DNA from: Promethearchaeota archaeon
GTDB taxonomy: Archaea; Asgardarchaeota; Lokiarchaeia; Sigyniarchaeales; SOKP01
Length of the DNA: 48,998 nucleotides
Assembly: GCA_048941285.1 (NCBI GenBank)
Contig: JBHLNS010000024.1
Location: forward strand, 1 to 48,998
Reading direction: 5' to 3'
In this document: positions 16,459 to 21,642 of the stretch, in pieces
Numbering within the stretch: the stretch's first letter is position 1
How the letters are laid out: the number at the start of each line of letters is the position of its first letter
Notes under the pieces: generated by a model
Database searches by the model: none
What the model was told of the DNA's origin: nothing
The model's input: only the letters and a program-made list of their open reading frames with translations
Program-made: the position numbers and the translations under genes

Positions 16459-16563
16459 CGCAGACGGAGGGATTCGAACCCCCGAGCGCTCACGCGCACC
16501 GGCTAACTTGTTGAAATGCTGAATATCTCAAGGCCGGCGTCTTACCAGCTAGGCTACGTCTGC
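16459..16563 (-). tRNA. tRNA-Ser(TGA) with a 22-nt intron at 37/38 (16505..16526)
   Basis: GCAGACG/CGTCTGC acceptor stem, CCGGC-CT-TGA-G[intron]A-GCCGG anticodon arm, long variable arm. CTTG/CAAG forms the central BHB helix with AG|A and TT|A bulges. Confidence 0.92.
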
Positions 16564-18556: not shown

Positions 18557-18707
18557 TTTATAGGTTATATGAAAATAATTTTAACCATTAAATCCAAATT
18601 TTTTTTCGATTTATCTTTATAGTCTAAAAGCCTAATTTTTATAATAAAATATTAAAATTTTCAATCGTTATATTGAACTTGTAATATTTATTAACAATAT
18701 TAAAAAT

Positions 18708-18790
18708 GCTCAGGTCGCTTAGCCTGGTAGAGCGCCGGTCTGCTAAACCGGTGTCCAATGGATCCGTGGGTTCAAATCCCACCCTGAGCG
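18708..18790 (+). tRNA. tRNA-Ser(GCT)
   Basis: GCTCAGG/CCTGAGC acceptor stem, CCGGT-CT-GCT-AA-ACCGG anticodon arm, long variable arm, GGTTCAAATCC. Confidence 0.95.
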
Positions 18791-18797
18791 TAGATAT

Positions 18798-18819
18798 GGG
18801 CCAGTGATCTAGTGGTTAT
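18798..18819 (+). repeat. 5' fragment of tRNA-Val; direct repeat of 20132..20153 (21/22 identical), possible att site
   Basis: GGGCCAGTGaTCTAGTGGTTAT versus GGGCCAGTGgTCTAGTGGTTAT. Confidence 0.8.
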
Positions 18820-18932
18820 CACGAGTGTAGTTTATCTAATTATCTTGATTCCATTTTTTCTTAAGTTATTTTCAATATATGGATATAAAATTAGAGGTTC
18901 ATATTCTAAATTAGGTATAACTAAACTTTTTA

Positions 18933-19192
18933 TTTATCTTCAGTATATAATTTATAAAGAATAGCTACTCCATGCCAAACTAAATATTCTTTGGGCAATT
19001 CTAATGCCGATAACTGATGCTTTAAAAAAGAACATTACATTCCAGTATTGTTCTCAAAAGTCTTATTATCGACACCTTTTAATGATAATCTTACAAAAAA
19101 ATTTTCAAACTTGCTCGAATCCTTAATATATTCTTCATCTAACAATATGCCATTTGATTCAAGTATAAATAATGTGTCTTTTGGAATGTAAT
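18933..19192 (-). pseudogene. Fragment of an archaeal radical SAM protein (approximate ends)
   Basis: Hand translation FILESNGILLDEEY...VRLSLKGVDNKTFENNTG, then a stop/frameshift and QLSALEL. No CxxxCxxC and no start codon. Confidence 0.55.
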
Positions 19193-19309
19193 CTCAACCC
19201 TATTTAATCGATGGCATCTTAGGGTTTCATAATCTTTTGCGATTAAGGTCTTTCCAAAAGCAGGATATCCCATAATTATAATAATTTTGTCCTTCATATT
19301 CCATGCCAT
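19139..19309 (-). pseudogene. N-terminal fragment of a P-loop (AAA_33/polynucleotide-kinase-like) protein
   Basis: MKDKIIIIMGYPAFGKTLIAKDYE...HRLNR, then unrelated sequence and a stop after 56 aa. Confidence 0.55.
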
Positions 19310-19450
19310 CTAATTTTTAGTAATTTCAGCGAAGCCATCGAAATCATACTTATCTGCAAGTTGAGAGATCGAATTAATTTATTAAAATGAATTTTTTTTA
19401 TTATAATGCAATTAATATTGGAAAATAAGTAAAAAAACAATTGTTTAAAA

Positions 19451-20008
19451 ATGGAAGGAATTAAACAAGAAGGACTAGAATTAACATATAAGATTTGTAT
19501 TTTCGGAGATAAAAACGTTGGAAAGACAACATTGGTAAATCGTTATGTCACAAATAAATTTCATGAAAATATACAAATGACTCTTGGGGCAACAATACAT
19601 GTTAAATACTTAGAGTTAGAGAATGGAACAATAACACTTCAAGTATGGGATTTTGGTGGTCAAAAGAGGTTTAAATTCCTGATATCAGCTTATGCTCAAG
19701 GTGCAGCTGGAGGAATTTTTATGTTTGATCTTACTAATTATGAAAGTTTAATTGCTTTAAATGATTGGCTTCCAGAATTTGGGAAGTCAGTTAGATCTAT
19801 ACCTCTCATAATGGTTGGTGGCAAACTAGACCTTGAACAACAAAGGGATTGTAAAAAAGATGAAGTGTTAGACATAATGAAACCATATCAATTCCATAAA
19901 TATATTGAATGTTCATCAAAAACAGGAGAGAATGTAGAATTAGTATTTAGAGTTTTATTATTTAAAATTCTTGAAGAGAGAGGATATAAATACATAAAAT
20001 TTAAATGA
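19451..20008 (+). CDS. Rab-like small GTPase
   Basis: GDKNVGKT (G1), TLG (G2), WDFGGQ (G3), GGKLD (G4), CSSKTG (G5); no C-terminal Cys prenylation motif. Confidence 0.93.
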   Translation: MEGIKQEGLELTYKICIFGDKNVGKTTLVNRYVTNKFHENIQMTLGATIHVKYLELENGTITLQVWDFGGQKRFKFLISAYAQGAAGGIFMFDLTNYESLIALNDWLPEFGKSVRSIPLIMVGGKLDLEQQRDCKKDEVLDIMKPYQFHKYIECSSKTGENVELVFRVLLFKILEERGYKYIKFK

Positions 20009-20131
20009 GTTATCATGTTTATGGATGACAGGTTTAAAGAAAAGATGGGATCGATTTCCGAATGGTTAAGGAAAGATTACAAAAATTTTAATTGGATTTA
20101 AGATTAAACCTAAATATAAATTTATTAAATT

Positions 20132-20297
20132 GGGCCAGTGGTCTAGTGGTTATGGTTCAATTTTTTAAAAAAATTGAATAGTATACGTCGCGCTAATATA
20201 ATATTAAGCATATTATACCACGAATACACCGCGAAGGTCGAGAGTTCAATTGGGAAAAAGATTTCTTTTTTTCTTGGAATCCTCTCCTGGCCCACCA
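20132..20297 (+). tRNA. tRNA-Val(TAC) with three introns (20155..20184, 20195..20224, 20251..20280) and encoded CCA
   Basis: Removing the three 30-nt segments gives a 76-nt cloverleaf: GGGCCAG TG GTCTAGTGGTTATGAC G TCGCG CT TAC AC CGCGA AGGTC GAGAG TTCAATC CTCTC CTGGCCC A CCA. Each junction folds into a BHB-like motif. Confidence 0.88.
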
Positions 20298-20298
20298 T

Positions 20299-21114
20299 TT
20301 ACTTAACTGTTTTAAAAAGTTCTTTTATTTTTTCAGGTCTTAATGCACTTAATTTGCAATTTCTCAGCTCATTACCAATATGAGCAATGATTCCGGGGGC
20401 ATTAGAACCCTCTTTTAGGAGAACAAGATTTTCCAAAAAACCAAATCTTTTTACTGTAATAATGTCTCGAAAATGGCCCTTCTTTGTCAATATTTTCTTA
20501 AATTGACCTTTAGTTTCTCCACTTAAAAATACAGCTTCGAGATTTTCTTTTAAGATTTTCTGAAAGAAATCTAAAGTTTTTGGAGCTAGTTCACCTAATA
20601 TTTTATGGTTAACAGAATCAATTTCAGTAATTTTAATATCTACAGGGAAATTATTAATGAAATCATAAGCCTCAATAATCTCCTTTACAGATCTTTCCTT
20701 TCCCTCGCATAATTGTTCTCTTAAAGTGTGCAAGTTTACAAGTACATCAACATGCGGATTTAAAATAGCACAATCTACATAAAGTCCAAATCCAACTTTC
20801 CCAACATCTGTAAGGCTACCCCTGTATAGTTTATTAATAGATACATCTTTAAAATTTTGAATACTTCCAATTTCTTTTTTTAACAAATTAATTATAAATT
20901 GTTCTTCTGGCCCAGTGATACTAATTTCAAATCTTTTGTCGAATTTCCTTAATTTTTTTATTTGAATAGAGGTATCAGTAAACCCTTTGATACGCTCCTT
21001 TAAATACTTAAGATATCTAAGGTAAATATCTTCTTTGTTTCCTCGATCTGAAACATTATAGATTTTATCAAATAAAACTAAATTTTGTACCATAAAATAA
21101 AACTCAAATGCCAT
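20299..21114 (-). CDS. DUF2110-like archaeal protein with an S1/OB-like domain
   Basis: DVGKVGFGLYVD, GHFRDII...GFLE, SNAPGIIAHIG. Confidence 0.75.
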   Translation of the reverse strand: MAFEFYFMVQNLVLFDKIYNVSDRGNKEDIYLRYLKYLKERIKGFTDTSIQIKKLRKFDKRFEISITGPEEQFIINLLKKEIGSIQNFKDVSINKLYRGSLTDVGKVGFGLYVDCAILNPHVDVLVNLHTLREQLCEGKERSVKEIIEAYDFINNFPVDIKITEIDSVNHKILGELAPKTLDFFQKILKENLEAVFLSGETKGQFKKILTKKGHFRDIITVKRFGFLENLVLLKEGSNAPGIIAHIGNELRNCKLSALRPEKIKELFKTVK

Positions 21115-21270: not shown

Positions 21271-21642
21271 ATGGAAGAACAAAGATTTAATAATTTAGTT
21301 GAAGCACTAAATGAATATGAAGGAGTGGAGGAAGTTTTTTTACTAAATAATGAAGGAGATATTGTTTTTAAATCAGGGGATTTTCCTTTATCAAATGAAG
21401 AAGCTATGGAAATATTAAATGCTTGGAAAACTAAAGAGGCGGCTCTTAATTATCAGAATTATCGATTTGCAATTTTAAAAAATGATGATATACAATTGGC
21501 GGCTAAAAACATTGGCGCAGGAAAAGGGAACATCGTAGGGTCCATCACCAAAGAAGGAGATTATCTTGTTGCCCATACAAGAGATGAAGGGATGATATTA
21601 TTAGAGTGGTCAATTTTTATAAATAAAGTAGCATGGTCATAA
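21271..21642 (+). CDS. Profilin-like protein (Asgard type)
   Basis: 123 aa; VFLLNNEGDIVFKSGDF...AW...YRFAILK...LAAKN..GKGNIVG follows the profilin strand/helix order. Confidence 0.65.
   Translation: MEEQRFNNLVEALNEYEGVEEVFLLNNEGDIVFKSGDFPLSNEEAMEILNAWKTKEAALNYQNYRFAILKNDDIQLAAKNIGAGKGNIVGSITKEGDYLVAHTRDEGMILLEWSIFINKVAWS

Follow-up and report, generated by a model that had tools for sequence, protein, structure and literature searches.

The window analysed here is a 48,998-nucleotide (nt) stretch of DNA from a Promethearchaeota archaeon (GenBank assembly GCA_048941285.1, contig JBHLNS010000024.1), and positions 20132-20297 on its plus strand are a genuine tRNA-Val(TAC) gene that is interrupted by three non-canonical bulge-helix-bulge (BHB) introns, at positions 23/24, 33/34 and 59/60 of the tRNA. 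It is the only gene for tRNA-Val(UAC) that we found in the assembly, and in our judgement its three 30-nt introns are very likely to be spliced by the tRNA-intron endonuclease EndA and the ligase RtcB. Joining the plus-strand exons at 20132-20154, 20185-20194, 20225-20250 and 20281-20297 gives a 76-nt tRNA-Val(TAC) with CCA. ARAGORN calls this product as tRNA-Val(tac), with 76 bases including A73 and CCA, 59.2% GC and a regular cloverleaf, so that removal of the inserts restores a canonical tRNA. The exons (23, 10, 26 and 17 nt) are GC-rich, and the introns between them (30, 30 and 30 nt) are AT-rich, with only 4, 6 and 8 G+C by direct count for introns 1, 2 and 3. As the four exons lie colinearly on one strand within 166 nt, this is not a split or permuted tRNA gene. 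A first-pass annotation, made from the letters of the DNA, had given these exon and intron coordinates and lengths together with three central helices, 3-nt bulges and inner hairpins, and all of them were found again in our analysis.

Exon 1 (20132-20154) supplies positions 1-23 of the tRNA, comprising the 5' strand of the acceptor, U8, the 5' strand of the D-stem, the D-loop and U22 G23, and this 23-mer is identical in the orthologues. Intron 1 (20155-20184) follows at 23/24 in the D-arm. Exon 2 (20185-20194) covers positions 24-33, that is the 3' end of the D-stem, G26, the 5' strand of the anticodon stem and C32 U33; in intronless orthologues it is contiguous with exons 1 and 3. Intron 2 (20195-20224) sits at 33/34, directly 5' of the anticodon. 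Exon 3 (20225-20250) holds positions 34-59, running from the TAC anticodon through the 3' strand of the anticodon stem, the variable loop and the 5' strand of the T-stem into the T-loop as far as U59. Intron 3 (20251-20280) interrupts the T-loop at 59/60, and exon 4 (20281-20297) completes the molecule with positions 60-76, containing C60, the 3' strands of the T-stem and acceptor, A73 and an encoded CCA at 20295-20297.

At each junction we observed a BHB motif, which we took to be a 4-bp central helix, two opposite 3-nt bulges, each containing a splice site, and at least one flanking helix; intron 2 has it only in a relaxed form. In the register used, the last six exon bases consist of a 4-nt helix strand and two bulge bases, and the same holds for the last six bases of the intron. 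Published work uses the same register, placing the first two bases of the anticodon in the central helix of the 37/38 intron (PMC4090602). In intron 1 the exon strand GTTA (G19 U20 U20a A21) pairs with TAGT at all four positions, two of them G-U, and all six positions scored in the inner helix are paired, extending into a 10-bp inner hairpin. A24 is the third bulge base, and the outer helix pairs at 4/5 positions with three weak contiguous pairs. The central helix of intron 2 is made between the 5' strand of the anticodon stem (C28-G31) and the intron (CGCG with CACG) with 3/4 pairs, flanked by an inner helix with 5/6 and an outer helix with 2/5 positions paired; the inner helix begins with an A-C mismatch followed by eight pairs, and the outer helix is 2 bp long. 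Intron 3 forms a canonical hBHBh' motif in which T54-A57 (TTCA) pairs with TGGA at 4/4 positions, the inner helix at 6/6 within a 9-bp hairpin and the outer helix, which is the 5-bp T-stem, at 5/5, with bulges A58 U59 | U and A U | C60. It is an exact T-arm analogue of the canonical 37/38 intron, since in both the 5-bp stem serves as outer helix, loop nucleotides 1-4 enter the central helix and the 5' bulge is made of loop nucleotides 5-6 and the first intron base. The departures from the canonical 37/38 case are the T-loop location of intron 3, the lack of a strong outer helix in introns 1 and 2, and the need for the anticodon stem to unfold for intron 2.

The junctions do not depend on the motif alone. 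Spliced alignment to the mature sequence, in which no motif was used, placed insertions at 23, 33 and 56-59, giving three 30-nt insertions by comparison with a compact relative that has the same anticodon, where two of at least 10 nt would already define a multi-intron gene. As exon 3 and intron 3 both end in AAT, the third insertion slides over 56-59, and the BHB geometry picks 59/60. When each end was moved by +/-8 nt, the true boundaries ranked first, third and first for introns 1, 2 and 3 by BHB quality among the 289 boundary pairs.

The motifs are also conserved. Across distinct orthologous copies the BHB cells were paired at 99.3% for intron 1 (9 copies), 94.1% for intron 2 (9 copies, with the central helix at 4/4 in 7/9) and 99.1% for intron 3 (12 copies), compared with 13-77% for introns 1-3 in a control where the partners were slid by 1-3 columns. 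All changes in intron 1 were one-sided and preserved the pair. Intron 3 showed three compensatory pairs, with the observed covariation score reached in 0/500 shuffles, and intron 2 showed two, with its score reached in 28/500, figures that, coming from related sequences, are counts rather than probabilities.

Relatives carry the same gene with zero to three introns. A BLAST search with the locus covered 40 relatives at first and was then extended to the remaining 53 of the 54 species-level genomes in the genus. A motif-free census of the matches yielded 41 loci, of which 40 could be scored; the locus in genome G019 was not resolvable, and 13/54 genomes had no usable match. Three insertions were present in 6 of the scored genes, two in 5, one in 12 and none in 17. 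The genomes with three are our own (G000), G023, G020, G041, G044 and G058, and four of the other five have the same three introns, the fifth having a non-homologous 58/59 intron as its third. The combinations observed were {23}, {53}, {59}, {58, different intron family}, {23,33}, {23,53}, {23,59}, {33,59}, {23,33,59} and {23,33,58}. Copies at each site are homologous, with mean column identity including flanks of 94% at 23/24, 92% at 33/34 and 91% at 59/60, and all orthologous copies at these sites are 30 nt long except for two of 29 nt.

The exons change far less. Intronless orthologues are contiguous, and their sole difference from the spliced product is G50 where our gene has A50, which still pairs with U64. 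Over 72 nt the mature sequence is identical (Hamming 0) in L004, L006, L035, L050 and L109, loci that carry other subsets of the introns. ARAGORN recognises the intronless loci L013, L015, L016 and L017 as tRNA-Val(tac), with L013 and L015 scoring 67 bits against Rfam RF00005. It misses all the intron-bearing orthologues tested (L004, L005, L006 and L007), and in an Rfam scan of L004, L006 and L007 only the two-intron orthologue was detected, at 37 bits.

Two further intron families occur in the T-arm of these relatives. L012, L030 and L032 have a second, non-homologous and GC-richer family of 30 nt at 58/59, with a central helix that reads as GTTC/GGAC from the sequences, and a third family of 31-32 nt is found at 53/54 in G010, G051 and G061. 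With three T-arm families, at 53/54, 58/59 and 59/60, the T-arm would have gained introns within the genus on at least three separate occasions.

The expectation that standard scanners may miss this gene proved true of both ARAGORN and Rfam. In default mode ARAGORN reported only tRNA-Lys(ctt) and tRNA-Ser(gct) over the whole window and missed the Val gene. At the gathering threshold Rfam added a tRNA at 16459-16563 and found nothing at 20.1 kb, where a permissive scan of 20050-20400 with E up to 10 returned three sub-threshold, unrelated matches only. The added gene, on the minus strand, is a tRNA-Ser(TGA) with a 22-nt intron at 37/38, scored at 44.6 bits by Rfam and seen by ARAGORN only with its intron option. 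We therefore wrote a cloverleaf and BHB finder that seeds on GC-rich acceptor stems, walks 3'->5' and may skip relaxed-BHB introns, at most three and each of at most 90 nt. On the contig of the window it returned Ser(GCT), Lys(CTT), Ser(TGA) with its 22-nt intron, and Val(TAC), the last with precisely the three introns described above. As a control, 731,017 bases of reversed, non-complemented genome searched on both strands gave one solution, with a cloverleaf score of 21 and two introns. An earlier version of the finder, which allowed introns up to 140 nt, had no GC filter and accepted long variable arms with any anticodon, was tightened after giving about 12 spurious three-intron solutions on one contig strand. 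A scan for GC islands as tRNA exons was likewise dropped, its 984 islands being far too unspecific.

Whether the cell could do without this gene depends on other copies. The first-pass annotation had named an intact tRNA-Val(TAC) elsewhere in the genome, combined with the lack of a spliced product, as what would count against it, and the assembly contains no such gene: Val(TAC) appears once among the 46 genome-wide solutions of the finder, with Val(GAC) and Val(CAC) as separate genes, and blastn-short with the mature sequence against the whole assembly returned this locus and a 22-nt fragment only. ARAGORN did propose a second "Val(tac)" at C34:11041-11142(-), calling a 30-nt intron at 34/35, which we rejected. 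It is really a tRNA-Ala(TGC) with G3:U70 and a 30-nt D-arm intron at about position 23, an instance of a non-canonical intron leading to a mis-called isotype. In archaea, reading GUA requires a UAC anticodon, and GTA makes up 36.6% of the Val codons (12,217/33,398) in the 1,326 open reading frames (ORFs) of at least 300 codons. The Val(TAC) gene is probably essential. As ARAGORN and Rfam both miss the only GTA decoder found, automated annotation would report a missing decoder for this genome.

The genome also encodes the enzymes that such introns need. It has two tRNA-intron-endonuclease paralogues (PF01974/PF02778). The first, of 198 aa and encoded on contig C70, can be aligned over its full length with the EndA alpha subunit of Aeropyrum pernix (3p1z_B, E 9.1e-35); its HKPR aligns with EKPR, which puts a Lys at the K44 position as counted along the alignment, and it retains the catalytic Tyr, His and Lys. 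The second, of 201 aa and on contig C68, matches the EndA of M. kandleri and M. jannaschii, with a Ser in place of the catalytic His (KDSAKF vs KEHSVY), and is predicted to be a structural beta subunit, of which loss of the catalytic His is expected. RtcB is present as a 496-aa open frame on contig C69 (PF01139, E 1.6e-170). The genome thus holds RtcB and an EndA of the type for relaxed motifs, with the loop lysine and an (alpha-beta)2 assembly predicted from its sequence. Non-canonical and relaxed introns are reported to be cut only by enzymes of the (alpha-beta)2 and epsilon2 types that have such a loop, and the L1 loop to be conserved in TACK and Asgard archaea (PMC5829648).

From these parts we infer the course of transcription, cleavage and ligation, and any order among these events. 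A precursor of about 166 nt would be transcribed from 20132-20297, and each intron with its adjoining exon would fold into a BHB of a 4-bp helix and two 3-nt bulges, continued by the intron hairpin. Intron 3 would use the T-stem as its outer helix, as the canonical 37/38 intron uses the anticodon stem, and introns 1 and 2 would present weak outer helices of the HBh' type. Cleavage of intron 2 would require the anticodon stem to open, since positions 28-31, its 5' strand, form the central helix of the cleavable conformer. A heterotetramer-type EndA, with a catalytic alpha subunit bearing the Crenarchaea-specific loop lysine and a beta subunit lacking the catalytic His, would cut within the bulges. 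Ligation of the four exons would fall to RtcB, which would probably also close the introns into circles.

Several observations weigh against splicing of this gene as we propose it. Intron 2 is the most degenerate here of the nine distinct copies, with 3/4 central pairs and a mismatched first inner pair. In ViennaRNA folding of the full precursor the central-helix pair probabilities were 0.00 for intron 1, about 0.06 for intron 2 and 0.36-0.38 for intron 3, they were the same in every partly spliced intermediate, and a structure holding all three motifs came to -29.4 kcal/mol against a minimum free energy (MFE) of -46.7. Since folding disfavours the cleavable conformers, recognition would depend on the enzyme, which is the usual situation with relaxed motifs. 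Among the sequencing runs matching the stretch there was no RNA run, and one metatranscriptome from a study that bears the DNA gave 0 reads, which is uninformative on expression. With the assembly at 94% completeness and 3.4% contamination, a second gene could lie unassembled.

Such points would suit a gene in decay, spliced poorly or not at all, with Val(UAC) supplied by a copy absent from the 94%-complete assembly. The weak intron 2 motif, with its A-C pair, and the almost negligible folding probability of motifs 1 and 2 would then reflect degeneration, and the locus has in addition been rearranged, with a 1.31-kb insertion and a 22-nt duplicate of the gene's 5' end upstream. We consider decay improbable, because the exons remain identical to, or one nt away from, those of functional-looking orthologues while the introns diverge, the sole exon difference (A50) keeps its pairing, five other species-level genomes retain a three-insertion architecture, and the cell, with 36.6% of its Val codons being GTA, has no second Val(TAC) that we could find. 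Still less probable is a three-intron form produced by assembly or binning from strains with different intron sets. Metagenome contigs from the same kinds of samples do hold intronless and other variants, and the metagenome-assembled genome (MAG) has some contamination, as given above, but the same colinear three-insertion architecture recurs in the independent assemblies G023, G020, G044, G058 and G041 at 84-92% identity over all 166 nt, the GC of the contig (29.9%) matches that of the genome (29.7%), and introns 1 and 2 stand together on one metagenome contig that runs from exon 1 to exon 3. That the insertions are removed without EndA and a BHB, by group I or II self-splicing, or are kept in a functional long tRNA, might draw on the thermodynamic weakness of motifs 1 and 2 but can be set aside almost entirely, as 30 nt is to our knowledge far under the size of any self-splicing intron, no ribozyme family matched in Rfam at E up to 10, retention would break the D-stem, anticodon loop and T-loop, and each of the three junctions has an exact, conserved BHB geometry in a genome with the matching enzymes.

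Splicing by EndA and RtcB raised the question of order. The 10-nt exon 2 contributes to two motifs, and this had been taken to suggest ordered splicing; we find that no order is required. To the motif of intron 1, exon 2 gives the third bulge base A24 and the weak outer helix C25-U27, and to that of intron 2 it gives the central helix C28-G31, the bulge bases C32 U33 and the weak outer helix G26 U27. The double claim is therefore limited to G26/U27, which lie in the weak outer helices of both, and the cores do not overlap. All three cores can coexist in one legal secondary structure, so the structure imposes no fixed order, and as relatives carry the subsets {23}, {59}, {23,33}, {33,59}, {23,59} and all three, no intron needs the presence of another. 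Just 10 nt separate the 3' cut site of intron 1 from the 5' cut site of intron 2, and probably only one enzyme molecule could work there at a time. We rejected thermodynamic folding as a basis for the motifs or for an order of splicing, because the motifs of introns 1 and 2 were predicted in no splicing intermediate.

A genome-wide survey shows how common such introns are in this archaeon. We kept finder solutions with a cloverleaf score of at least 24 and introns of at most 60 nt and removed overlaps, which left 37 credible tRNA genes, compared with 24 tRNA matches by Rfam in the whole genome. Ten have no intron, 18 have one, eight have two and one, Val(TAC), has three, so that 27/37 genes carry 1-3. 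Against the standing of Val(TAC) as the only three-intron gene, the survey recovers about 37 of about 46 expected tRNA species, and the statement holds within the limits of the finder. The 37 introns have a mean GC of 0.32, compared with 0.61 for the mature sequences; 26 are 28-33 nt long and 14 exactly 30 nt. The equal length of the three introns, noted in the first-pass annotation, is consequently no special feature of this gene, 30 nt being the commonest length genome-wide.

How the introns came to be distributed so unevenly is best approached through gene trees. We built two, one from the RtcB DNA of 51 genomes and one from the DUF2110 gene immediately adjacent to the tRNA gene in 16 genomes. 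Both agree on the groups (G000, G011, G007), (G020, G008), (G022, G010) and (G024, G017), with G013, G018 and G002 outside. Mapped onto the RtcB tree, the 23/24 intron occurs in 12/38 scored genomes and needs at least nine changes, the 33/34 intron in 9/38 with at least eight, and the 59/60 intron in 13/38 with at least nine. Forcing the nine 33/34-bearing genomes into one clade cost 1,343 log-likelihood units (p-AU 0.000125), in a test weakened by the group having been named after the tree was seen. The earliest-branching scored lineages on this tree are mostly intronless. Sister genomes can differ completely: G020 has three introns and G008 none, with exons that differ by one base, and G007, without an intron, stands next to G058 with three, the exon allele of G007 being divergent and like that of basal species.

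Because the introns at each site are homologous, independent gains are unlikely. The patchwork is better accounted for if the introns originated within the genus and afterwards underwent repeated precise loss, or conversion or exchange of alleles, as judged from two single-gene trees. More tentatively, each intron may have arisen once and then been removed precisely and repeatedly, singly or together with others, by cDNA conversion or interspecies allele exchange, with the 30-nt mode marking a length-selective step. This is a fuller scenario that we regard as possible without favouring it. The template could have been a cDNA of spliced or partly spliced tRNA, or else an allele from another species, and the preferred length would correspond to a substrate optimum of EndA/RtcB or to an insertion intermediate of fixed size. 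If single origins and repeated loss are true, the intron content of Asgard tRNA genes turns over quickly in both directions and not by gain alone.

We also looked for sources of the introns. A donor search within the genome returned low-complexity or short matches only (best 19/20 nt, E 0.012). Transposition between tRNA genes of this genome was rejected as well, the highest identity between any two introns being 0.71, which compares with 0.67-0.73 after shuffling. An exact match of 23 nt to the first 23 nt of intron 2 lies at L021:1501-1523 (G004 contig C111) in coding-like sequence, and we judged it a chance match in AT-rich DNA, because it fits the derived intron 2 variant of our genome and the orthologous introns of other species differ.

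The locus belongs to a known kind, since tRNA genes with several introns have been published for Asgard archaea before. The first-pass annotation had described triple-intron tRNAs as rare and known mainly from Thermoproteales; this statement is out of date given the Asgard genes published in 2024 and 2026. In three complete genomes of Atabeyarchaeia and Freyarchaeia, 92-95% of tRNA genes are reported to bear introns, over half of them several (Valentin-Alvarado et al. 2024, PMC11291895). A 2026 census in preprint describes up to five intervening sequences per Asgard tRNA gene, 30% of all such sequences, mostly in the D-arm, being missed by tRNAscan-SE, median intron lengths of 22-23 nt, repeated gains with no general route of arrival, and two EndA paralogues in 44/60 genomes (bioRxiv 10.64898/2026.10.13.758758). 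The main text of that preprint, taken apart from its supplements, does not contain "Loki" or "Prometh", and in the literature listings we found no paper on this particular Val gene.

Our gene comes from the same phylum and shares with these published Asgard genes several non-canonical BHB introns per gene, including D-arm introns missed by annotators, two EndA paralogues consistent with (alpha-beta)2, no sign of intron copying between tRNA genes and an intron content that varies among close relatives. It differs in that the host is of a Lokiarchaeial genus, in that the burden is lower, with 37 introns in 37 credible genes compared with 2.2 per gene in the focal families of the preprint, in that the commonest length is 30 nt rather than a median of 22-23 nt, and in that introns at the same site are homologous across clades set apart by both gene trees, pointing to loss or allele exchange and not only to the repeated gain described so far.

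In Thermoproteales, where three introns are described as the maximum per tRNA gene (PMC4033280), the genes of Pyrobaculum, Thermofilum and Caldivirga likewise have up to three non-canonical BHB or relaxed-BHB introns in a colinear gene. They are also served by an (alpha-beta)2 EndA with the Crenarchaea-specific loop, which for our archaeon is a prediction. Similar introns recur there in different tRNAs and are read as transposition (Sugahara 2007/2008 and Fujishima 2010, reviewed in PMC4033280 and PMC4090602), in contrast to the shuffled level of identity seen here. The host is moreover an AT-rich Asgard archaeon (29.7% GC) and not a crenarchaeote. Up to three non-canonical, BHB-dependent introns are known in Cyanidioschyzon merolae and in nucleomorphs as well, but those genes are eukaryotic and nuclear and some are permuted, whereas ours is archaeal with colinear exons (PMC3728597, PMC4090602).

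What this locus adds is the 30-nt length mode, a natural series of intron subsets and a signal of loss or exchange. One genus here amounts to a natural experiment, in which subsets of three homologous introns sit in near-identical exons beside a gene whose tree is congruent. Such a series bears on whether each intron is spliced independently, on how weak a BHB motif Asgard EndA tolerates and on whether Asgard archaea lose tRNA introns as readily as they gain them. The census of 2026 leaves the arrival of introns open and does not address their loss in its main sections (bioRxiv 10.64898/2026.10.13.758758); with genes carrying 0-3 introns, loss and the order of splicing could be tested directly.

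The window is contig C29 of a 3.55-Mb assembly of 101 contigs, and its host is an Asgard archaeon. A search of the genome collection with exon 1 found 89 stretches, and those with the same introns belong mostly to Promethearchaeota/Promethearchaeia, a group once called Lokiarchaeota. An ORF for a Ras-family small GTPase lies just upstream of the tRNA at 19451-20008 (+) (E 2.5e-38), and a weak profilin match, below the cut-off of Pfam, lies at 21271-21642 (+) (E 0.0093). Ras-family GTPases and profilins are typical of the "eukaryotic signature" genes of Asgard archaea.

The surroundings of the gene have also been reshaped. Only 7-8 nt separate the neighbouring Ser(GCT) and Val(TAC) genes in relatives. 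Here the 5'-terminal 22 nt of the Val gene recur, with one mismatch, at 18798-18819 (+), directly 3' of tRNA-Ser(GCT) at 18707-18791, and no further Val exons follow this fragment. Between it and the intact Val gene is a segment of 1.31 kb (18820-20131) that includes the Ras-family GTPase ORF, and which looks like an insertion accompanied by duplication of the 5' end of the tRNA gene.

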